The translations under genes were made by a program, and so were the position numbers. The notes under the pieces are model-generated. The model saw nothing but the letters and a program-made list of their open reading frames with translations, ran no database searches and was not told the DNA's origin. A DNA stretch of 64,000 nt from Patescibacteria group bacterium (GTDB taxonomy: Bacteria > Patescibacteriota > Patescibacteriia > GWA2-46-9): positions 122,037-186,036 of the forward strand of contig JBAZXG010000002.1 in assembly GCA_041660005.1 (NCBI GenBank), in the 5' to 3' direction. Positions 9,209-60,418 of the stretch are shown here, piece by piece. The first letter of the stretch is position 1. Each line of letters starts with the position of its first letter.

Positions 9209-9290
9209 AAGGAGGGTCAAACAGAACATGAGGAGGGAAGGCGGCGTTGTCACAGGGCAACGCCGTTTTTCCATGAGAGGAATTTTGTCC
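9209..9290 (+). repeat. 80-bp terminator-containing unit, copy 2 of 2
   Basis: Matches 8584..8665. Confidence 0.75.
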
Positions 9291-9662
9291 ATTTCTTTGT
9301 GCGGGCAAAGAAATGGACGAAAGAAAGCCCGCCCCGCATCGACGCTCCAGGTCGGCAGTCATTCCGAAACAAACACGGCGGCAATGAACTCGCCTTCAGC
9401 TCAAACAGCATTGCCGCTCAGTCGTGTTCGTTTCGTCTGTCTGTTCTCCCCGGTCGATGAGGGGGTGTTGCAGAGTCCAAATCCCATAGGATCGGCGTCA
9501 GAGCTTGCGATGGAAGTGAGTGCTCTAATCTTTTAGGAGACGGTCGTGGTAATGCGAACAGGGTCTGTGGCGTTTGCTAGTTGTTGATAATTTTTGACTT
9601 GCAGTTTTGCCTTTTGATTTTTGAATTACTACTTACCTGTGCAGCCCGAGGACGTTATGTTT
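9289..9662. repeat. R1 composite structured element, copy A (begins with hairpin ccatttctttg-tgcgggca-caaagaaatgg, ends ...cagcccgaggacgttatg)
   Basis: Shares modules with 30523..31007, 48861..49290, 60020..60356: the covarying stem module (c/a)atgaactcg(y)c...caaacagcat; the piece cccataggatcggcgtcagagcttgc (inverted relative to copy D); and gttgataatttttgacttgcagttttg shared with copy B. Confidence 0.8.
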
Positions 9663-16692: not shown

Positions 16693-16769
16693 TGGTGCCC
16701 TCGGCAGGAATCGAACCTGCAACCTTATGGGTAGAAACCATACGCTCTATCCAATTGAGCTACGAGGGC
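16693..16769 (-). tRNA. tRNA-Arg (anticodon UCU)
   Basis: Minus-strand cloverleaf GCCCUCG...CGAGGGC-A-CCA, D arm GCUC-AAUUGGAUA-GAGC, anticodon stem UAUGG/CCAUA loop UUUCUAC, T arm GCAGG-UUCGAUU-CCUGC. Confidence 0.85.
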
Positions 16770-16917
16770 ATATTTAGCGAACTATTTTAACGGAACGGTC
16801 ACTGCATTGAGCCCCGATGTTGCAATCGGGGCCCCGACACGAAACCGTCGTCGGGGCTACGAGGGCGCACGGCGGGAAGTATATAGGAATAGCAGAGGAA
16901 TACCAGTCTAATGAGCT

Positions 16918-17035
16918 ATTATTTATTTTTGCCAATACCTCGTCGGCTTGCCGCGAAGATGTCATATACTGAGGCAAAAATATCCCTCGTAGCCGAGTTT
17001 GACTCGGCGAAGTGGGATTACCTAGTTTTCCCGTG
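16918..17035. repeat. R2 structured element, copy 1 (atttttgcc...cctcgtcggcttgccgcgagg...ggcaaaaat...gcgaagtgggattacct)
   Basis: Same element at 30231..30390 and 47963..48054; nested inverted repeats (9-bp outer stem, inner hairpin CCTCG(T)CGG-CTTG-CCGCGAGG). Confidence 0.8.
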
Positions 17036-17983
17036 AAACTGTTCGTGAACGTGACGCAGCTGTTGGTCGGTGAGGTGCGTGTAAATTTGCGTTGTGGTTA
17101 CTGAAGCGTGACCAAGAAGACTCTGCACTGACCGAAGATCAGCACCGTTAATAAGAAGGTCAGTGGCGAACGAGTGGCGGAGCGTATGCGGGCTCACTTT
17201 TTTTGTGATGCCGGCAACCTTGGCGTAGCGGCTGACGATGCGTTCAATACTGCGTGGTGTTAGTGGTGCGCCGCCCTCTTTGCGCTCGCGTTCCGTTTGT
17301 TTTGTCTTGGCGCGATCGTGGCGAATAAAAAGATAGGGCGAGGCGTCATGTCGCGCTTCAATATAAGAGCGAAGCAGCGCACGAGCGTCAGAAGAAAGAA
17401 ATACCACGCGCACCTTGCTACCCTTACCACGAACGCTGAATTCGGTGAGTGTATGCGCTTTGGTGTCGCGCAGGTTCACTTGGTCAATTTTTAAGTTTGC
17501 CAACTCAGAGACGCGCAGACCAGTTGAAAATGTTGATGCCAGCATCGCTTGGTCGCGTAGCATGAGAATTTTGGGCTGCTTCACGAGCGTTGGCGCGTTA
17601 AGTAGGCGTTCTAGTTCCGTGCTACTTAGAAATTCAATGGAGCGATCTGGCATTTTCATGAGTTCAATTTTCTCTGGCGCGAGACTCGTGACATCGCGCT
17701 TCGCTAGATATTTCAAAAATGAGCGCAGAGCAATGAGATGGTAATTCTGTGTATTTTTTTTAAGCGACTCACCCCGCGCATCAGTTAAACGATTCAGCCA
17801 TAGGCGATATTGCCGTATCAGCTCCGCGGATAGGTCTTTCGCATTTTTACTGCCACGTTCCTCGGCCCAGGCAACAAACCGATCAAGGTAGAAACTATAA
17901 TTGCGAATAGTCGCCGCGCTGCGGTTTCTTTCTATTTCTAAATATTCTAAAAATTCTTTGCGATAACGTTCGAGGTCGGCCAT
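17018..17983 (-). CDS. tyrosine recombinase XerC/XerD family
   Basis: C-terminal catalytic HTLRHSFATDLL...LLGHASVTTTQIYTH; N-terminal core-binding domain; start at MADLERY. Confidence 0.85.
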   Translation of the reverse strand: MADLERYRKEFLEYLEIERNRSAATIRNYSFYLDRFVAWAEERGSKNAKDLSAELIRQYRLWLNRLTDARGESLKKNTQNYHLIALRSFLKYLAKRDVTSLAPEKIELMKMPDRSIEFLSSTELERLLNAPTLVKQPKILMLRDQAMLASTFSTGLRVSELANLKIDQVNLRDTKAHTLTEFSVRGKGSKVRVVFLSSDARALLRSYIEARHDASPYLFIRHDRAKTKQTERERKEGGAPLTPRSIERIVSRYAKVAGITKKVSPHTLRHSFATDLLINGADLRSVQSLLGHASVTTTQIYTHLTDQQLRHVHEQFHGKTR

Positions 17984-18611
17984 AGCAGTATTGTACGACA
18001 CAACAGAGTGTGTGGCTACTTTACATCGAAGATGACTTTGCGTTGATGCAGTGTTGCGTCGTGAGGAAGGAATAGTGCTGCGCGACGTGGTGTTGCTATT
18101 TTTGGCTGGCACGGTCGAGGGTTACTATTCAACACGTTATTAGGTCTATATCCTTTCACTCCTGAAGTTTACTGAAGGACATCTCCACAAGAAGAGGGCA
18201 AGAAGTTTGACCGCTCGTTTTCCGTCGCACACTACCGTGACCCATAAACCAATGGTGTTCGAGCGACATCACAAGGCTAGTATCTCTCGAAGTGAAGCCA
18301 TGATCGTGTCTGCATAAGCTGGATACAAAAAGCTGTGAATATTGAGAGAAAAAGAAAAAGACCCCCCGGCGCAGAGAAAAAATTTGCGCCGAAGGGTCGA
18401 GGTGATCGAGGATCAAGTCCTCAATTCGATCGAATGAATTGTGCTGTTACTACTGCACAAACGCGGACGCTCCTCCATAGCGTTTGTCTGTGTCGCCTTC
18501 TGCAAAACTAATATCGTAATCGAGTCGGCCGTTACGGATGCGCCAGTGGGCAGCCCCATAGAAGGATAAACCGGAGCCGCCGTAGTTACGGCGGAGGCGG
18601 AAAGACCACAC

Positions 18612-26173: not shown

Positions 26174-28384
26174 ATGGCACGTCGCCGACCTTACACACGC
26201 TCTCGCAGTTTTTTTGGAACGTCCGCAAGCTCGCTTCTGTCTGAAGAAACCGCTGACGGATTGGTGGTGCTCTTGCTTTTGGCATTCGCCGGAGTGAGCA
26301 TTTTTTCTATTCTCCATCTGGCCGGTCCTTTTGGATCTTTTTGGCTTGGTGTTCTCAAAAATCTTTTCGGTTGGGGAATTTGGTTGTTTCCGACTTTTCT
26401 CATTTTTCTCGCTACCATCCGTATGCGTCCACCGGTCAGCCGTCCGGCCGGCGTCGTTATCTTTGGCCTGTTGTTGGCTATCCTTTCCCTCTCCTCGTTA
26501 TTTGATACTCTGATTCCGCTTGACTTTGACTTGCGCCGGCAGCTCGTCGGAGAAGGGGGAGGATACGTGGGCTTATTTTTACGTTTTCCACTGGAAACTA
26601 TTTTTGGTTTTTGGGTTAGTGTGCTGGTACTTTTTTTGCTTTTCTTAGCTTCTATTCTCCTCATTTTCGATTTACCACTAGCACGTCTTGGTCACTTGCT
26701 CATTGCACCCGTTGTGGTCGCTCGTGATTTTTTCCGTGGCCTCTTTCAAGCGTCTGGTCAAAAAAATTACAGAGAAGAAGCTACACACAACGATGCTGCG
26801 TCGTATCAGCTCAATCGATTCACAATGGGTGCGGACGAAGAGGAAGAAACAGAAGAAGAGAGTGAAGAAAAAAACAGTCAGCCAGCGGCTCCGGCAACAC
26901 TTCCAGGTCTCAGTGCTAATAGGAGCCCACGTTTTCGCCCAGTGAGTATTGATCTACCATTAACGCTCCTCGAGGAGAGTAGCGACAAGCCGACCAGTGG
27001 GGATATCAACGCCAATCGAGACCTGATTAAACTCACCCTTGAGAATTTTGGAATTTCCGTTGAAATGGCGGACATCAGCGTAGGGCCGACCGTAACCCAG
27101 TACACACTAAAGCCAGATAGTGGCGTAAAACTGTCCGCTATTACTTCGCTTTCTAATGACCTTGCCTTAGCACTTGCCGCGCATCCTATTCGTATTGAGG
27201 CGCCGATTCCAGGCCGCTCCTTGGTTGGCATTGAGGTACCAAACAAAGCGGTTGCTCGGGTTCACTTGAGAGAGATTCTGGAGTCAGAGGGTTTTCAGAA
27301 GCGAACATCAAACTTAGCACTAGCACTAGGTAAGGATGTAACGGGGCTTCCCTGGGTCGTCGACCTGGAGCGGATGCCGCACCTGCTCGTTGCCGGCTCG
27401 ACGGGTTCAGGGAAGTCAGTCGCTTTGAATGGCGTCATTCTTTCTTTGTTGTATCAAAATAATCCAGCTGACCTCAAGTTTATTCTGGTTGACCCAAAAC
27501 GTGTGGAGTTTAGCATCTACCAGCACATGCCGCATTTGCTGACGCCGATTATTACCGAAGTACCTGCCACAGTGAATGCACTGAAGTGGCTGCTCGGAGA
27601 AATGGACCGTCGGTTTACCGTGCTCGCCGCAGCCGGGTTCCGAAACATTCAAGCATATAATCAGAAGTCAGTAGAAAAAATGCCTTACATTATTTTGGTT
27701 ATCGACGAGCTGGCCGACTTAATGGTGGCCGCTGGTTCAGAAGTAGAGGCGGCCATTATTCGTTTGGCGCAAATGTCTCGGGCTGTTGGTATTCACCTAA
27801 TCTTAGCGACGCAGCGCCCTTCCGTTGATGTTATTACGGGTCTCATTAAAGCCAACATCACCGCGCGCATAGCTTTTTCGGTTGCGTCACTCACCGACTC
27901 GCGAACCATCCTTGACTCGTCTGGTGCAGAAAAACTTTTGGGACGCGGCGACCTTTTGTACGTTTCAGCCGAAGTGACAAAACCGAAGCGTTTGCAAGGA
28001 GCATTCATTGGGGATGATGAAATTAGAGAGGTGGTTAACTTTCTCAAAAACAAAGCAACGCCCGAATACGTGAATGAGATTATTGAAAAACCCGGCAGAG
28101 GACTCGGTGGTTTTGACGATGCGTCTGACGACCCACTTTACCCTGACGTAGAACATTTGGTGCTCACGAGTCGAAAGGCATCCGCTTCATTTTTACAGCG
28201 ACGGCTCAAGGTTGGCTATGCTCGGGCAGCGCGGCTGCTTGATATTCTTGAAGCAAGGGGTGTCATAGGCCCAGGAGACGGTGCTAAACCGCGAGAAGTG
28301 TTGCTCGCCTTGGACGAGCGTGATATCCTGGATAGTACAATACCATCAGAAAGTGACGATGCCGACGAAACCGAAGAATTCTAA
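26174..28384 (+). CDS. ftsK: DNA translocase FtsK
   Basis: N-terminal TM segments, linker, motor domain LLVAGSTGSGKSV, gamma domain. Confidence 0.9.
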   Translation: MARRRPYTRSRSFFGTSASSLLSEETADGLVVLLLLAFAGVSIFSILHLAGPFGSFWLGVLKNLFGWGIWLFPTFLIFLATIRMRPPVSRPAGVVIFGLLLAILSLSSLFDTLIPLDFDLRRQLVGEGGGYVGLFLRFPLETIFGFWVSVLVLFLLFLASILLIFDLPLARLGHLLIAPVVVARDFFRGLFQASGQKNYREEATHNDAASYQLNRFTMGADEEEETEEESEEKNSQPAAPATLPGLSANRSPRFRPVSIDLPLTLLEESSDKPTSGDINANRDLIKLTLENFGISVEMADISVGPTVTQYTLKPDSGVKLSAITSLSNDLALALAAHPIRIEAPIPGRSLVGIEVPNKAVARVHLREILESEGFQKRTSNLALALGKDVTGLPWVVDLERMPHLLVAGSTGSGKSVALNGVILSLLYQNNPADLKFILVDPKRVEFSIYQHMPHLLTPIITEVPATVNALKWLLGEMDRRFTVLAAAGFRNIQAYNQKSVEKMPYIILVIDELADLMVAAGSEVEAAIIRLAQMSRAVGIHLILATQRPSVDVITGLIKANITARIAFSVASLTDSRTILDSSGAEKLLGRGDLLYVSAEVTKPKRLQGAFIGDDEIREVVNFLKNKATPEYVNEIIEKPGRGLGGFDDASDDPLYPDVEHLVLTSRKASASFLQRRLKVGYARAARLLDILEARGVIGPGDGAKPREVLLALDERDILDSTIPSESDDADETEEF

Positions 28385-30210: not shown

Positions 30211-30240
30211 TCTCCGGCCTCTGGCCGGAGTTTATTTTTG
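30211..30240 (+). terminator. recA terminator (ctccggcc-tc-tggccggag + TTTATTTTT) overlapping the start of R2 copy 2
   Basis: Perfect 8-bp stem followed by T-run. Confidence 0.65.
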
Positions 30241-30390
30241 CCTAACCACCTCGTCGGCTTGCCGCGAGGTTACCGTTGCAGAAGACAAAAATATCCCGCG
30301 TAGCTCCCTGACCGTCCGTAGCCTTGCTGTGTCCCGCCGTAGTTTTATACGAGCGGGAGCGAAGGAGGTTAGCGAAGTGGGATTACCTAT
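30231..30390. repeat. R2 structured element, copy 2 (expanded by an internal insertion of about 70 bp)
   Basis: tttatttttgcctaaccacctcgtcggcttgccgcgagg ... gcgaagtgggattacct. Confidence 0.8.
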
Positions 30391-30522: not shown

Positions 30523-31007
30523 AACCTCGCCCCGTCTGACGGGGCTGTGGGTTGCCTACTTTCTTACTCGCCTAAGAAAGTAGGCGGAAAGAACGGCGCC
30601 CCTGTGTCGACACTATCGTCGGCGAACGTTCCTCAGTGCGGGTGGCGACAATGAACTCGTCTTCGTCTCAAACAGCATCGTCGCTTATTCACCCGCACTT
30701 CGTCCGTTCGCTCTCCTCGGTCGGCAATGGGGTTTGGCAGAGTGAAGTGAACAATTCCTTTAGGAAACGGCCGTGGTAACGGGAGCGGCGTCTACGGTGT
30801 TTATTTGCAGTTGATAATTTTTGACTTGCAGTTTTGACTTTTGCCTTTTGATTTATAATTTCTGCTAGCCCATACAGCTCGAGGACGTTATGTTTATGTA
30901 ATGAAACTCCTACAGGATCGGCGTCGGTAATGACCGAAGAGGAACATTCAGGGCGGGATTTCTTTCACCTCTTTCCTTGTCTAAACAAAGAAAGGAGTAC
31001 GGTTTCT
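30523..31007. repeat. R1 composite structured element, copy B
   Basis: hairpin ctactttctta-ctcgcc-taagaaagtag, module gacaatgaactcgtc...caaacagcatcgtcgc, gttgataatttttgacttgcagttttg, cagctcgaggacgttatg, ctcctacaggatcggcgtc, terminal hairpin. Confidence 0.8.
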
Positions 31008-31228
31008 TGCCGTATATAAAGAAATACTATAAGGTGTCCTGGCTTGATCGTCGGTGTGGGTTGCCAAACCGCCATAGAGGTACGCTTCACCGCTCTCTGT
31101 GGGCATCTTATCACCACGATCTCGCCTGCCGGGTACCGTTCTTTCACAAAGAGGACGGTGCCCGGCGCAACATTTTTAAAACACAAAACCCCTCGAGTAC
31201 TCGAGGGGTTTTGTTTACTGTAAAAAAT

Positions 31229-34508: not shown

Positions 34509-34754
34509 ATGAAAAATCTTCATTTTGTGACTTTTCTTCTCCTCGTTATTGGTGGGTTGAATTGGCTACTTTTCGGACTGTTTGGTTGGGAAATAGGAGC
34601 ACTATTGGGTGGTATGGGGGCAGTACTGTCTCGTATCATTTACGTACTTGTCGGTTTGTCGGCAATCTACGAAGTTGCGACACACAAAGCGTCTTGTAAG
34701 CAGTGCGAAACGAAAGCATCTTCATCGCAGGCGCCCATGAGTCACAGCATGTAG
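34509..34754 (+). CDS. DUF378-like small membrane protein
   Basis: Two TM helices with GGLNWLLFGLFG motif; start at MKNLHF. Confidence 0.5.
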   Translation: MKNLHFVTFLLLVIGGLNWLLFGLFGWEIGALLGGMGAVLSRIIYVLVGLSAIYEVATHKASCKQCETKASSSQAPMSHSM

Positions 34755-34900
34755 TTATTGTTGTGTGGGTATTGAACTGCCTCGACGTTATGTCGGGGCA
34801 GTTTTATTTTTGCCGAGGATAGTGAGTGGAGTACAAACAGTAATTTGTATTTCCGAACGACGCAGGCATCAAAGGGTTTAGTATCCATGTATTATGTTTT

Positions 34901-34936
34901 TTACACCATTTTGTGCGTACGCACAAAATGGTGTAA
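34901..34936. repeat. 36-bp perfect palindrome P, copy 1 (TTACACCATTTTGTGC-GTAC-GCACAAAATGGTGTAA)
   Basis: Identical sequence at 47900..47935; flanking tattatgttttt is also shared in inverted orientation. Confidence 0.9.
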
Positions 34937-35025
34937 TTTGACACTTACGTAGCTCTGCCGCGTCGCCTTTCTCAATACGCCGGTGGGCGTATTGAGGGAG
35001 CCAGGGCTTTGCCTTGAGGTAGTTG

Positions 35026-35058
35026 ATATGCAATTGGGGCGTCGTTCGTGTTCTACGA
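35026..35058. terminator. GC-rich perfect hairpin ggggcgtcgttcgt-gttctac-gaacgacgcccc just downstream of the dapA-like gene (minus strand)
   Basis: 14-bp perfect stem. Confidence 0.5.
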
Positions 35059-35098
35059 ACGACGCCCCACATCGGTTCTTCTCGGCTTTGGCTGGCCC

Positions 35099-35975
35099 CT
35101 AATCCAGCATGCCGAGTTTTCGGAGTTCACGCCCGAGCAGTTCCATCGCCCCTGTGCTCATGGGCGTGAGTGGCAGGCGAACGTAGTCGTTGCAGAGTCC
35201 CATCATGGCGAGCGCGGCCTTGATGGGGATCGGGTTGGTTTCAAGAAAGAGGGCCCTCATCAGCGGGAGCAGATGGTAGTGAGTGGCTCTCGCTCTCGGT
35301 AAGTTCCCCCGCTGCAGGTGTTCCACCATGCCGACGAACGCCTCCGGGAGGAGATTCGAGAGAACTGAGATCACTCCATGCCCCCCGACCGACATGATGG
35401 GTAAGGTCAACCAGGAAGTCCGGGCCGCAAGCCTTGATGACATCCATGGTCTTGTTGAGAGACCCAGTGGCCTCCTTGAGTCCCACCACCTCCGGGATCC
35501 GTGTGAGTTCCACCATCGTTGCTGTTTCAATCCCGACACCAGTCCGGCCGGGAATGTCGTAGGCGATGAGTGGAAAGCCGGGTACGGCTGCGGCTATTGC
35601 GCGAAAGTGCTCGATGATGCCTTGTTGTGTGGGCTTGTTGTAATAGGGGCTGATGATCAGCGCCCCGTCAGCGCCTGCGTCCTTCGCCGCCCGAGTGAGC
35701 GCAGTCGCCTCAGCGGTCGAGTTCGACCCTGTGCCGGCGATGACTCGTGCGCGCCCATTCGCTGCCTCGACGACGATTCGAATGATGCGCTCTTGCTCTT
35801 CGCGTGTGAGCGTTGCTGCTTCACCAGTCGAGCCGCACGGCACGAGTCCTGGTACACCAGCGGCGATCTGCAGCTCCACAAGTCGTCGGAGTGCTTCCTC
35901 GTCGACTGACCCGTCTTTCTTGAATGGAGTTACGAGCGCGGTCGCAACTCTAGTGATTAGATCTGTTCTTGCCAT
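35099..35975 (-). pseudogene. dapA: 4-hydroxy-tetrahydrodipicolinate synthase (DapA) with a frameshift, GC-rich
   Basis: ORF 35241..35975 encodes the N-terminal two thirds (GSTGEAATLTREEQ...VIAGTGSNSTAEA, YYNKPTQQG). ORF 35099..35539 in another frame encodes the C-terminus (LTLPIMSVGGHGVISV...ETNPIPIKAAL). Frameshift lies near 35440-35470. Confidence 0.7.
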
Positions 35976-37946: not shown

Positions 37947-38104
37947 GATCGCCGCACTTGCGGCAGCGTCTTATTCTTAATGAGCGCTGTTGATCGCCGC
38001 ACTTACGACAGCGTTTCGTTCTCGGTAAGTGTTGTTGACCCTGCACTTGTTCGGCAGCGTCTCGTTATCAATCGGTACTATAGGATCGCTGCACTTACGG
38101 CAGT
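37947..38104. repeat. degenerate tandem repeat, about 4 units of about 45 bp (GATCGCCGCACTTRCGRCAGCGTYT...)
   Basis: Units begin at about 37947, 37992, 38037, 38084; intergenic between ychF and the exonuclease gene. Confidence 0.7.
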
Positions 38105-46423: not shown

Positions 46424-47807
46424 AGAAAACGTTATGTCGTGGCAAGGAAAACAGGTCGCCATCATTGGCTTTGGCATAGAAGGAGAAGCGGCTCTTGATT
46501 ATCTTATTAAAAATGGTGCCAAGGTTACTGTTTGCGACAAGATCGACGAGGCGGCTTTAGGAGATCGTTATACGCGCTCACGCGAAAAAGTTGAAGCGTG
46601 GCAGTTAGGCGCCGATTACCTCCATAAACTAAAAGAAGTTGATGCAGTTTTTCGAAGTCCTGGTACTCCTTTTTACAGCGTAGAAATTCAGGAAGCGCTC
46701 AAGAGTGGCGTTCAAATTACGAGCGGCACCAAAGAGTTTTTTCAAAATTGTCCGGCGCGCATTGTCGGTGTAACCGGCACCAAAGGCAAAGGGACAACCG
46801 CAACGCTCATTTATGAGATGCTCAAAGCCGCCGGTCAGCGAGCGTATCTCGTTGGTAATATTGGCAAACCAGCGCTATCTGTGTTGCCTGAACTTACCAA
46901 AGAGGACATTGTGGTGTTTGAGCTTTCTAGTTTTCAGCTGCAGGACCTTGATTCCTCGCCCTCAATCGCCGTTGTTCTTGGGGTAACGGTTGACCACCAA
47001 GATCATCATGCTTCGGTTGAAGAGTACGAAGAGTCCAAGAGTGCAATTGTCCGTTTTCAAAAGGAAGAAGATGTTACAATTACCAACATCGATTATCCGG
47101 CAAGTGAACGCATTGCCGCCGAGACAAAAGGGAGACTCGTGCCCGTGAGTACTGCTCGCCAGCTTGAGTATGGAGTGTATGTTGCTGATGGAAACATCAT
47201 GCAAAATATTGGAGGCAGCCCCATCAGTATTGTCGCTTTAAACGAAATAGGGCTGCGTGGTGCATTCAACGCTGAGAATGTGGTTGCGGCTGTGGCAGCC
47301 GGGAGCGTTTTAGGAATTGAAGAAGAAACAATTGCGGCGGTGCTTAGGATCTTCACCGGGTTGCCGCATCGCTTAGAATTTGTGCGAGACGTACGAGGTG
47401 TCATGTATTGGGATAATTCTTATGCCACAACCCCCGAGACAACGGTTGCAGCCATTCAATCCTTTAAGGAGCCGATCGTGCTTTTACTTGGTGGCTACGA
47501 AAAAGGATTTAATTATCGTGCACTTGCTGACGGCGTTGTGGCCAGTTCAGTGAAAGCTATTGTTGGCATTGGCAAGAACGCACCGCAAATGTATGAAGCA
47601 GTACAAGTTGCAGCTAGTAAGGCTGGTAAATCTGCGCCGCAGTATATTGAAGGAGGAGAAACGATGTCGAGTATGATTAGTGCTGCAAATAGCGTAGCGG
47701 TTTCGGAAGACGTCGTGTTGCTGTCTCCGGCTGCCGCCAGTTTTGATAAGTTTAAAAATGTAACTGACCGAGGAGAGCAATTCAAAAAAGTAGTAGAGAG
47801 TCTATAA
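46416..47807 (+). CDS. murD: UDP-N-acetylmuramoylalanine--D-glutamate ligase
   Basis: GVTGTKGKGTTATLI P-loop, Mur ligase middle and C domains. Confidence 0.9.
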   Translation: MSKENVMSWQGKQVAIIGFGIEGEAALDYLIKNGAKVTVCDKIDEAALGDRYTRSREKVEAWQLGADYLHKLKEVDAVFRSPGTPFYSVEIQEALKSGVQITSGTKEFFQNCPARIVGVTGTKGKGTTATLIYEMLKAAGQRAYLVGNIGKPALSVLPELTKEDIVVFELSSFQLQDLDSSPSIAVVLGVTVDHQDHHASVEEYEESKSAIVRFQKEEDVTITNIDYPASERIAAETKGRLVPVSTARQLEYGVYVADGNIMQNIGGSPISIVALNEIGLRGAFNAENVVAAVAAGSVLGIEEETIAAVLRIFTGLPHRLEFVRDVRGVMYWDNSYATTPETTVAAIQSFKEPIVLLLGGYEKGFNYRALADGVVASSVKAIVGIGKNAPQMYEAVQVAASKAGKSAPQYIEGGETMSSMISAANSVAVSEDVVLLSPAAASFDKFKNVTDRGEQFKKVVESL

Positions 47808-47899
47808 ATGGTATTAACCCCATAGAAAGTCCCGGAGCATTTTATCTGCCACCGAGCGAACTGAAAAAGGGAGTGCGACAGAGCTACGTAAGTATCAAA

Positions 47900-47935
47900 T
47901 TACACCATTTTGTGCGTACGCACAAAATGGTGTAA
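47900..47935. repeat. 36-bp perfect palindrome P, copy 2
   Basis: Identical to 34901..34936. Confidence 0.9.
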
Positions 47936-47962
47936 AAAACATAATAAGTGATATTTAACCCT

Positions 47963-48054
47963 TTATTTTTGCCAATACCTCGTCGGCTTGCCGCGAGGTT
48001 ACCATATACTGAGGCAAAAATATCCCTCGTAGCTTTAGCGAAGTGGGATTACCT
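47963..48054. repeat. R2 structured element, copy 3
   Basis: ctttatttttgccaatacctcgtcggcttgccgcgaggttaccatatactgaggcaaaaatatccctcgtagctttagcgaagtgggattacct. Confidence 0.85.
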
Positions 48055-48133
48055 ATGTATACCCCGTCCCCTTTAGGGCGGGGTAATTGACTTGCCTGCG
48101 TCGGCTCGAAGACCCGGCAGTAAAGTTTTGATC

Positions 48134-48165
48134 CCCCGGACGCGCATTGTGTGGCGCGTCCGGGG
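48134..48165. other. GC-rich hairpin ccccggacgcgc-attgtgtg-gcgcgtccgggg (member of a CCCCGRRCGCGC...GCGCGYYCGGGG hairpin family downstream of small minus-strand genes)
   Basis: 12-bp perfect stem; no clear U-tract. Confidence 0.5.
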
Positions 48166-48198: not shown

Positions 48199-48333
48199 TT
48201 ATGTGTCCTCTTCAAACAAATCGGGTTTGAACATGCCGAACAGCTCTTCTTGCAGCCAATCAGGCAACCAAACGACGATTAGCACGACACCTGCGATGAT
48301 TACGAAAGCTACAACTGCCTTGAGTCTGCCCAT
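48199..48333 (-). CDS. small membrane peptide (44 aa) MGRLKAVVAFVIIAGVVLIVVWLPDWLQEELFGMFKPDLFEEDT
   Basis: Hand-translated; RBS ggagga 7 nt upstream; one TM helix; below the 60-aa ORF-track cutoff. Confidence 0.5.
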   Translation of the reverse strand: MGRLKAVVAFVIIAGVVLIVVWLPDWLQEELFGMFKPDLFEEDT

Positions 48334-48477: not shown

Positions 48478-48600
48478 CTACACTCGCCAGTAGAAGTAAG
48501 TGTAGGTAACTAGAACGGCGAGGGCTCCGAAAATCCAGCGAAGCTGGACCAATTCGCTGTGGTTTTTCGGATCCCTCCAATAGGCAATGAATTCCCTCAT
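48478..48600 (-). CDS. small membrane peptide (40 aa) MREFIAYWRDPKNHSELVQLRWIFGALAVLVTYTYFYWRV
   Basis: Hand-translated; RBS gggagg upstream; immediately followed by terminator hairpin. Confidence 0.5.
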   Translation of the reverse strand: MREFIAYWRDPKNHSELVQLRWIFGALAVLVTYTYFYWRV

Positions 48601-48636
48601 AGCATGCTTCCTCCCTCTCAAGAGTATCTACGCGTG

Positions 48637-48780
48637 CTAGTCCGCGCGGATTCTTGATACCCATTCATTCAGGAGCCATATCCCGTCGTATACAGCAAAC
48701 AGCAGAAGTACGCCGAGTATTACGAGTTCAGGAGTAATACTCGGTTGGTCGTTATGCGTGGAATCGTCGGTCGGTCTCAT
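48637..48780 (-). CDS. small membrane peptide (47 aa) MRPTDDSTHNDQPSITPELVILGVLLLFAVYDGIWLLNEWVSRIRAD
   Basis: Hand-translated; RBS ggaggg upstream; one TM helix; apparently co-transcribed with the 48478..48600 peptide. Confidence 0.5.
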   Translation of the reverse strand: MRPTDDSTHNDQPSITPELVILGVLLLFAVYDGIWLLNEWVSRIRAD

Positions 48781-48860
48781 GCAGTCCCTCCTGGTTTTTT
48801 GCACTGCTGCAGATTAAAATTAGTTTAACGTTATTAAAGACAAAATCAAGTTCAAATTGT

Positions 48861-49290
48861 CCACTTTCTTACTTGTCTAAGAAAGTGGACGGAAAGAATG
48901 ACACCCTGAGGACTCGGCTGTGGGCTTGCTTCATACAGCAGACTGCTGACCATGAACTCGTCATCCGCCCCATAGCGGATTCCTCAAACAGCATGGTCAC
49001 TAAGTGCAGTCTGCTTCCCTCGCAAGCTTTGACGCCGATCCTAAGGGATTTTGCACTCTGCTCTGCCAAACCCCTGGTGTCCGGTCGTGGCAATGAGGAC
49101 GAAGACAGGACGAAAGAAAACAAGAGCATGTGTGAGATGAACCACAAGGTGAGGCGAGTTTGCTCTTGTTCGTCCTGCTGAGGAAGGAATGCCCGACCGG
49201 AGCACCCGGGGCGGGCTTCTTTGGGTACTTTCTTGCCCGCACAAGAAAGTACCAACTAGTCGCGAGGGCACAGCCCGAGGACGTTATGAG
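48861..49290. repeat. R1 composite structured element, copy C
   Basis: hairpin ccactttctta-cttgtc-taagaaagtgg; cctgaggactcggctgtgggcttgcttc; gaccatgaactcgtc...caaacagcatggtca; gacgccgatcctaaggg; hairpin gtactttcttg-cccgca-caagaaagtac; cagcccgaggacgttatg. Confidence 0.8.
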
Positions 49291-49341
49291 TTAAAGAAAA
49301 AGAAATGAAAAATCAAATTAAAAACAGCTGTAAATTTATAT

Positions 49342-49427: not shown

Positions 49428-49580
49428 TCAGTTGGTCGTCGGAACGACCGGTGCCAGTTGCTGCGAACCGACGACGCTCATGGCCACGATGGCCGCGATC
49501 GAAATCAGTGCGGCGAGCAGAGCGTACTCAGCGACCGTCGCCGCGGTCTCGTCTTTCAAGAAAGCAACAAAACGTTCCAT
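49428..49580 (-). CDS. Flp/Fap-family type IVb (Tad) pilin (50 aa) MERFVAFLKDETAATVAEYALLAALISIAAIVAMSVVGSQQLAPVVPTTN
   Basis: Hand-translated. Characteristic Flp motif FLKDE..A.EYALLAALI followed by a hydrophobic helix; RBS gaggga upstream; GC-rich. Confidence 0.65.
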   Translation of the reverse strand: MERFVAFLKDETAATVAEYALLAALISIAAIVAMSVVGSQQLAPVVPTTN

Positions 49581-49728
49581 GTTTTTCCCTCGAGGTCGAT
49601 TTCCGTACTACTGTCGTACGGATGGCTCGTAGGTTACACATACAAATATTTCATGTCAACTTTTTCGTAAATAAAAAAGAGTCGCCACACACGGGGCGAC
49701 TCTTTTTTATAAAGATTAAATTTACTTT

Positions 49729-59812: not shown

Positions 59813-60019
59813 GGGGAGAATAATATATTTTTCTTCTTCTATATTATAGCACCTTAAATTTGTCCTGCGATGCAGGACTGTAATTTGTTCGTTTTCGTCT
59901 TCTTAAGCTGCTAACGTCCTCGGTCCGCCGAGGTGGACCTCGCGACTGTTTGTTACTCTTTTGCGCACCCAAAATTTATTAACAAGAGCAAGTCCGCCAG
60001 AGGCGGATCCGCCTTTGGC

Positions 60020-60356
60020 GGAAAAAGGGTGCCCTGAGGACTCGGCTGTGGGCTTGCTTCGTGCAGCAGGCTGCTGACCATGAACTTGTCGCTTCGCTCC
60101 GCAAACAGCATGGTCATTAAATGCAGCCTGTTTCCCTTGCAAGCTCTGACGCCGATCCTATGGGATGAGCACTTTGCTAAACCCCATTGCCGACCGCGGA
60201 AAGCGAACGGACGAAGTGTGGGTGGTTAAGCGACGGTGTTGTTTGAAGCGGAGCAAGTTCATCGTCGCCATCCACACTGAGGAACGTTCGCCGACGAGAG
60301 TGTCGGCACAGGGCGGGCTTTCTTTCGTCTATTTCTTTGCCCGCACAAAGAAATAG
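60020..60356. repeat. R1 composite structured element, copy D (left half like copy C; right half is the reverse complement of the copy-B module)
   Basis: cctgaggactcggctgtgggcttgcttc; gaccatgaacttgtc...caaacagcatggtca; gacgccgatcctatggg; inverted B-like segment; terminal hairpin ctatttctttg-cccgca-caaagaaatag. Confidence 0.8.
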
Positions 60357-60418
60357 ACAACTTAATTTGTATTTGCGATTTCGCAAAAAATGTGCTAAAA
60401 TAAAAAAACTATCATTCT

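Follow-up and report, generated by a model that had tools for sequence, protein, structure and literature searches.

Among the described systems, the closest to the repeat reported here are the REP, REPIN and BIME sequences of the Proteobacteria, which are mobilised by RAYT transposases of the Y1 type (Bertels & Rainey, PMC3337134, PMC3116915). The features that define a REP or a REPIN were taken in part from these two references. Regarding the Patescibacteria, we found no REP- or MITE-type repeats in the literature, and nothing relevant on palindromic repeats of the CPR. The genomes of Patescibacteria (CPR) are of small size and, according to the general view, compact with little mobile DNA. 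Nevertheless, the 64-kb stretch of a Patescibacteria metagenome-assembled genome (MAG) analysed here, which we call the window, carries several structured intergenic repeat families that its nearest syntenic relatives lack, and some of its spacers are 4- to 25-fold larger. One of these families is built around a palindrome and is the subject of this work.

The preliminary description of the window had reported a perfect palindrome of 36 bp present twice, and both copies were confirmed at their coordinates (Table 1), with 0 mismatches. No further copy of TTACACCATTTTGTGCGTACGCACAAAATGGTGTAA was found within the window when up to 3 mismatches were tolerated, and with the same tolerance 100 dinucleotide shuffles gave 0 chance matches to the 36-mer. 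As RNA or single-stranded DNA it forms a 16-bp stem with a GUAC loop. The RNA fold of the 77 nt around copy 1 (34889-34965) reached -29.8 kcal/mol (z = -5.5), the equivalent segment at copy 2 reached -26.1 kcal/mol, and the DNA fold of 34895-34942 gave -16.7 kcal/mol (z = -6.7). At the centre, TGTGCGTACGCACA, pyrimidines and purines can be read to alternate over 14 nt, with T4 and A4 tracts on either side. No avoidance of CGTACG or GTAC, which would hint at restriction-modification, was seen. A small ORF across the palindrome was rejected (15-21 codons, without a ribosome-binding site and not common to the third copy described below), and the translated palindrome, compared with a protein database in search of spurious ORFs, had no match.

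Furthermore, a contig from a different sequencing run (Logan contig L031, run SRR18595301) equals the window up to position 34919, which is precisely the midpoint of copy 1. At a palindrome a de Bruijn assembly should break off, as this contig does, and the identity of the contig through the left arm indicates that the sequence of copy 1 is real and no artefact of the MAG. Short-read contigs of this run break in or near the repeats; besides L031, there is another one (L002) that ends 21 nt before copy 2. We consider the palindrome to be a real and non-random feature.

A flank shared in inverted orientation had also been mentioned before; it is real and actually larger than first described. The arms of the inverted repeat (34890-35010 and 47826-47946) are 121 nt long and 81% complementary, blastn matched 34871-34986 with 47964-47849 (87%), and the 18 nt on the other side (34871-34889) are around 72% alike between the copies. 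Copies 1 and 2 are mutually inverted, at a distance of 13 kb. The identity is concentrated in a core of 72 nt, where only 2 of the 72 positions from 34890 to 34961 differ, vs 21 of the 49 positions from 34962 to 35010; the drop after 34961 is sharp, and the probability of so clean a core at the divergence of the outer part is around 5e-15. The core is also more uniform than the other repeat families of the window, whose copies are 69-94% identical and have hairpins with compensatory changes.

Regarding the ends of the element, the identity decays stepwise, at 36, then 72 and then 140 nt, and there is no one sharp element boundary. Therefore, gene conversion or selection fits as well as transposition. 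The 140-nt unit has no clear terminal inverted repeats. Both blocks are flanked by imperfect direct repeats of around 17 nt (CGAACGACGC..CATC at 34858 and 35056; TAAA..CCCC at 47805 and 48118), but these are too diverged to be called target-site duplications. The element also carries CGTAGCTC.

Table 1. Coordinates of the palindrome, of the longer repeat around it and of the neighbouring structures in the window
Feature	Position	Strand	Description
Palindrome, copy 1	34901..34936		TTACACCATTTTGTGCGTACGCACAAAATGGTGTAA; 36 bp, perfect, 18-nt arms without spacer
Palindrome, copy 2	47900..47935		Same 36 bp as copy 1
Near-identical 72-nt core, copy 1	34890..34961	+	Palindrome flanked by TATTATGTTTT and, on the opposite side, TTTGACACTTACGTAGCTCTGCCGC
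Near-identical 72-nt core, copy 2	47875..47946	-	Inverted; 2/72 mismatches (97% identical) vs copy 1
Full detectable homology, copy 1	34871..35010	+	Around 140 nt; from repeat search, blastn and alignment
Full detectable homology, copy 2	47826..47964	-	Within the block of around 316 nt that the relatives lack
Canonical intrinsic terminator of the DUF378 gene	34774..34812	+	14-bp stem with 7 G-C pairs and a T-run; copy 1 is 97 nt downstream
15-bp G+C-rich hairpin	35035..35069	-	On the dapA side of the repeat, 30 nt past the dapA stop
D1 repeat beside copy 2	47962..48093	+	Abuts the outer end of copy 2
Hairpin	48134..48165		CCCCGGACGCGC...GCGCGTCCGGGG; 327 nt after the murD stop

Copy 1 lies between a DUF378 gene (plus strand, ending at 34754) and dapA (minus strand, ending at 35099), 147 nt after the stop codon of the former and 163 nt beyond the 3'-end of the latter. 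Copy 2 is found 93 nt after the stop codon of murD (47807), and rightwards of it follow the D1 repeat, the last hairpin of Table 1, three minus-strand genes for small membrane peptides, a 400-nt repeat, a Flp-pilin gene and gdh. Both copies are intergenic and lie between convergent 3'-ends (DUF378/dapA and murD/the minus-strand small-peptide genes). The 13 kb between them contain ychF, an RNase T-like exonuclease gene, recQ, folD, glyA, a phosphoglucosamine or phosphoglucomutase gene, an inositol monophosphatase gene, murI and murD. The ORFs of the 64 kb were scanned with Pfam and NCBIfam, which gave neither a transposase (Y1/RAYT or other) nor a recognisable DNA-binding regulator. The window encodes a single recombinase, XerC/XerD-like (17018-18112), 17 kb away, as well as FtsK (26174-28384) and a DksA-type zinc-finger protein.

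Some features of the neighbouring genes are recorded here in their own right. The dapA gene (35099-35975, minus strand) has a G+C content of 59.5%, vs around 49%, and a small deletion inside it, near 35410, breaks it into two frames (...PDFLV / LTLPIMSVGGHGVISVL). This frame break is also the exact end of Logan contig L020, which comes from another run; the gene may have been acquired and be decaying, strains may be polymorphic here, or the assembly may contain a local error. The three small-peptide genes (48199-48333, 48478-48606 and 48637-48777, all on the minus strand) encode hydrophobic peptides of around 42-47 aa, each with a GGAGG ribosome-binding site and its own hairpin, and the Flp/Fap pilin gene between murD and gdh (49428-49580, minus strand) encodes 50 aa. 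The relatives have one or two small-peptide genes at the murD-gdh position, and, judging from the NCBI accession numbers, only two proteins were apparently called by PGAP at this place in this genome. In the divergent spacer between ychF and the RNase T-like gene, a unit of 45 nt occurs twice in tandem (37947-38036, 76% identical).

MurD of the window matches a protein of a Patescibacteria group bacterium MAG with 100% identity, and the closest other MurD is 61% identical and comes from Candidatus Uhrbacteria. The relatives that we compared are distant, namely contigs L023-L027 (MurD 55%) and L028 (MurD 61%). Gene order and orientation are common to them and the window (methyltransferase, DUF378, ychF ... 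recQ, folD, glyA ... murI, murD, small peptide(s), gdh, trpS, relA, topA, dprA), and therefore the 13-kb block is not inverted with respect to the ancestral arrangement. The preliminary description had proposed to look for the palindrome in relatives: it is absent from these two nearest sets in 21 kb of synteny, and so are D1 and the 400-nt repeat. From the murD stop to the homologous hairpin there are around 13 nt in the relatives vs 327 nt in the window, and alignment with L028 and L023 showed that the approximately 316 nt inserted after this stop consist of the palindrome element, D1 and around 65 nt more. On the other side, the DUF378-ychF spacer of L023 has 53 nt with one terminator and no dapA, whereas the same interval of the window holds the terminator, the palindrome element, a hairpin, dapA and an ORF of 222 aa. 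Thus, as expected of a MITE, a small non-coding unit is present in the window and absent from the homologous sites of the distant relatives L023-L028. Since their syntenic spacers lack the repeat, it is DNA added in the lineage of the window, although at this distance (MurD 55-61%) the "insertion" could also be ordinary spacer turnover.

These comparisons also bear on the surroundings of the palindrome. Each copy had been described as sitting at the entry to a GC-rich block, which is only loosely true: copy 1 is near the GC-rich dapA but separated from it by the distance given above, and copy 2 adjoins D1 and a small-peptide locus that the relatives also have. A role as island boundary keeps one point in its favour, that dapA is missing at this spot in one relative, but it is weak, because the small-peptide locus beside copy 2 is ancestral.

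A third copy was found on a JGI metagenome contig of 1,307 bp (L009). It is identical at 35 of the 36 positions, the lone change being central (CGTACG to CGCACG), and here the palindrome is longer, reaching to TTTT...AAAA. Its flanks show no relation to the window flanks, but a copy of D1 lies 30 nt away; the palindrome sits 3' of the only confident ORF of the contig, the terminator of this ORF and D1, and the contig ends 143 nt further on. The ORF clusters with MFA5954107.1 (WC817_01040, on a contig of 244,965 bp), while MurD and Gdh of the window are MFA5954325.1 and MFA5954328.1 (on a contig of 238,274 bp). Because these three proteins fall in one accession block, the third copy would belong to the same MAG, and we conclude from this single block that L009 probably carries a third, paralogous copy from the same genome or species. 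The copy number is at least 3, two in the 64-kb window and one on L009. The unit common to all three is a palindrome of 36-40 bp, and the larger unit of 72-140 nt is present in two of them, in inverted orientation. Both arms are invariant in the three copies and the sole substitution affects the central hexamer. Furthermore, all three lie in non-coding spacers 3' of genes.

A scan of the 185,579 species genomes of GTDB, which do not include the source genome, with a pattern of 13-nt arms and a gap of 0-12 nt gave no related copy and one unrelated hairpin in a Bacteroidaceae. In the JGI metagenomes 15 loci matched, but only L009 is related. Five of the loci (L013-L017, from soil and peat contigs) have ACCATTTTGTG-N6-CACAAAATGGT inside a conserved ORF, with the arms kept and the centre varying, which is a coding coincidence that mimics a conserved binding site; the flanks of the remaining loci are unrelated. 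The viral contigs of IMG/VR gave no related copy and 2 unrelated hairpins; four composition-matched control palindromes had 0, 0, 0 and 1 matches there, and therefore the 2 matches are close to background. A blastn search against plasmids and phages found no match to the palindrome. Apart from this, three JGI contigs from different samples (L004, at 1075-1185, L007 and L010) share a near-perfect palindrome of around 80 nt (…CAACCTGGAAGTTGGCAATTATAACCATTTTGTGTGCG(T/A)CGCACACAAAATGGTTATAATTGCCAACTTCCAGGTTG…) that is unrelated to the window save for a chance 11-mer.

The copies of the palindrome stand in a mosaic with other structured repeats, in a BIME-like cluster. The D1 repeat is structured, around 100-130 nt long, and occurs at 16922-17035, 30233-30390 and 47962-48093 in the window and at 977-1095 on L009. 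In D1 an outer stem, ATTTTTGCC/GGCAAAAAT, encloses an invariant core, CCTCGTCGGCTTGCCGCGAGG; the stem covaries on L009 (GTC/GAC). D1 always starts at a T-run, and two of these T-runs are the tails of intrinsic terminators. It matched nothing in Rfam and its core is absent from the viral contigs. A degenerate D1 beside copy 1 was ruled out by alignment. One copy lies directly after the XerC/XerD-like recombinase gene; D1 contains CCCTCGTAGC, the start of the 5' acceptor and D-arm of the adjacent tRNA-Arg(TCT) (16693-16769, minus strand), and there is a second GCCCTCGTAGC at 16857-16868 (minus strand), around 90 nt upstream of this tRNA. With recombinase, D1, tRNA fragment and tRNA side by side, this region looks like either the border of an integrated element or a repeat derived from a tRNA, and D1 may be a second mobile module.

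The other family consists of non-coding repeats of around 350-450 nt, at 9285-9662, 30554-30895, 48857-49295 and 59893-60360 (inverted), which are 73-89% identical and partly mosaic. These repeats open with a hairpin with a 13-bp stem and a 6-nt loop (for example GTCCATTTCTTTG-TGCGGG-CAAAGAAATGGAC), whose arms differ by compensatory changes, and each of them ends near CCGAGGACGTTATG. They belong to no Rfam family and are absent from the relatives; they could be an unrecognised structured RNA or a mobile element.

Regarding the palindrome, our preferred interpretation, which we put forward tentatively and with somewhat less than even confidence, is that it forms the core of a REP/MITE-like family of non-coding hairpin repeats, lineage-specific, of three copies or more, probably all within one Uhrbacteria-related genome of the Patescibacteria. 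The sequence is repeated, has a sharply bounded and near-identical core, occupies extragenic 3' positions, is absent from relatives and has no features of a terminator or operator. From this we infer that the element is mobile and that a cognate protein exists. The copies occupy gene-free spacers 3' of genes, where insertions would be harmless, and are additions to compact ancestral spacers. The element would spread or stay uniform as DNA, by transposition-like insertion or by gene conversion, and its hairpin, in single-stranded DNA or as a cruciform, would be recognised by a putative protein encoded elsewhere in the genome, for which the handling of REPs and REPINs by RAYT transposases may serve as a model. 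Once inserted, it would be carried passively, and a read-through transcript would contain the 16-bp stem. Gene conversion of an older duplication explains the stepped identity equally well. As the palindrome keeps its sequence while the other hairpin family drifts, either sequence-specific recognition or a very recent spread is likely. A function as recombinase or DNA-binding site, or as RNA hairpin, is possible and would be compatible with the repeat reading.

As explanations in their own right, these functions are unlikely. The palindrome could be a DNA site for a dimeric or tetrameric protein, with a few functional copies instead of selfish DNA. The candidates would be a site-specific recombinase, a nucleoid or partition-type protein or a telomere-resolvase-like enzyme, and the geometry would be that of 15-nt arms with a 6-bp centre, as in lox, FRT and dif-type cores, or 17-2-17, as in serine-recombinase sites. 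The invariant arms with the only substitution in the central hexamer agree with such a site, which the preliminary description had also considered, and so do the lack of the compensatory drift that the other hairpin family shows, the alternating pyrimidine/purine centre with its T4/A4 flanks, and the XerC/XerD-like recombinase and FtsK encoded in the window. However, no gene of a recombinase or of a recognisable DNA-binding regulator is adjacent, and the site is absent from the relatives and from the GTDB species genomes, which do not include the source genome. A symmetric pair at 13 kb around essential genes would invite deletion or inversion, yet the orientation is ancestral. A candidate invertible segment would be these 13 kb, which the inverted repeats flank; they have the same orientation as in relatives, contain housekeeping genes and have no recombinase next to them.

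Several specific sites of this kind were rejected. The arms of dif have the consensus ..ATAA / TTATG... The palindrome is no dif or Xer site, as it has several copies and arms unlike the consensus, and the cumulative GC skew is monotonic over the window; its steady rise means that there is no replication terminus here. CIRCE, CRP/FNR, Rex, NrdR, parS, cop-box and LexA-type motifs do not fit in spacing or sequence. The operator that had been proposed is disfavoured as well: the copies lie between convergent 3'-ends and not in promoter regions, no regulator was recognised and the spacers of the relatives lack the site. The HTH regulator to be looked for nearby was not recognised either, the only HTH domain in the window being HTH_25 in a protein of 279 aa with Glucodextran_B.

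An RNA hairpin in the 3' UTR is likewise improbable, whether as a back-up or insulating terminator, as a barrier to 3'-exonucleases or as an RNase III substrate. Both window copies are downstream of transcription units and the L009 copy comes after an ORF, a terminator and D1; the 16-bp stem is very stable, and in both window copies the UUU-tailed orientation faces the 3'-end of the convergent gene (dapA, murD). Nevertheless, the hairpin has tails of UUUGA in one direction and AAAAAAC in the other, thus without a U-tract, and the L009 copy is U4-stem-A4 whichever way it is read. The stem is rich in A and U and was not called by the terminator scan, so the bidirectional terminator of the earlier description is disfavoured; the genuine bidirectional terminators of the window (31183-31214 and 49671-49710) have G+C-rich stems with A and T runs. 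Furthermore, canonical terminators already precede copy 1 and the L009 copy, and structure alone would permit compensatory drift, of which none is seen. Rfam gave nothing above noise around the palindrome, only matches to miRNA hairpins and to HEARO, and its gathering thresholds were reached in the window by two tRNAs only. A HEARO/IscB omega-RNA was rejected as noise (17 bits vs a threshold of 83 bits, E = 0.82).

It is also rather doubtful that the palindrome is the recognition hairpin of a putative DNA-processing enzyme (a transposase or recombinase) that would insert the palindrome element and D1 just downstream of terminators in Patescibacteria. If this were true, a phylum with reduced genomes would have a "spacer-filling" system, either REP/RAYT-like or driven by an integrase, and we found no such system for this phylum in the literature.

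A symmetric outward promoter, giving short antisense transcripts into the 3'-ends of dapA and murD, is very unlikely. Its -35-like element would be TTTACA in one arm and its -10-like element CAAAAT in the opposite arm, at a distance of 18 nt; the promoter scan marked 34900-34929 (plus strand) and 47936-47907 (minus strand) with 9 of 12 matches, and the 25 nt at the 5'-end of the would-be transcript are conserved between the window copies. However, this is a weak match, which shuffled sequence produces at least as often (0.8-1.8 expected per region), L009 does not share the downstream sequence, and the window copies have no common conserved structure or terminator downstream. Finally, although the window comes from a MAG and perfect palindromes and inverted repeats are classic places of mis-joins, a fold-back or chimeric join can be dismissed almost entirely, given that the assembly of a different run has the same left flank and left arm at copy 1, that L009 reads through a 35/36 copy with unique flanks, and that the gene order of the relatives matches across both copies.

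Returning to the repeat reading, what it means depends on mobility. If the element is mobile, it could serve in strain typing, would account for assembly breaks and possibly for inversions in CPR MAGs, and would point towards the mobilising enzyme; as a mere relic with three copies, it would be a curiosity. In both cases, annotation of the palindrome as operator, terminator or island boundary is to be avoided.

Compared with the known families, the palindrome resembles bidirectional intrinsic terminators in being a palindromic hairpin between convergent genes, but it has neither the G+C-rich stem nor the A/U tracts and lies beyond a canonical terminator. With the sites of recombinases and telomere resolvases (dif 11-6-11, loxP/FRT 13-8-13, hix 12-2-12, telRL of phage N15) it shares two long inverted arms and a short centre, and telRL also has a centre of alternating pyrimidines and purines with A/T-tract flanks. 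Unlike these sites, it has no adjacent enzyme, it is present in several copies around essential genes and there is no sign of rearrangement; in the case of dif there is neither similarity to the consensus nor a switch of the GC skew.

The likeness to MITEs (Correia/NEMIS of Neisseria, RUP/BOX of pneumococci, ERIC) is closer, since the repeat is non-coding, 100-150 nt long, intergenic and found in both orientations, is able to fold into long hairpins and can end up in 3' UTRs. Nevertheless, the palindrome is internal and not terminal, the identity decays stepwise instead of stopping at defined element ends, and we found neither clear terminal inverted repeats nor a clean target-site duplication nor a parent IS.

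[quoted passage not shown] On the other hand, REPs are imperfect palindromes rich in G+C, and this one is perfect and AU-rich. The palindrome ends in TTAC and GTAA and has no GTAG-type 5' tetranucleotide, and its 17-nt half (TTACACCATTTTGTGCG) is not self-complementary, unlike the halves of a REPIN doublet. Moreover, no RAYT (Y1_Tnp) gene is present among the scanned ORFs of the window, and at least 3 copies are known (window and L009) vs tens to hundreds for REPs. Thus, lacking the GTAG motif, the REP doublet, a RAYT in the window and clear terminal inverted repeats, the element is best filed under the interspersed extragenic palindromic repeats in general, outside any named family.
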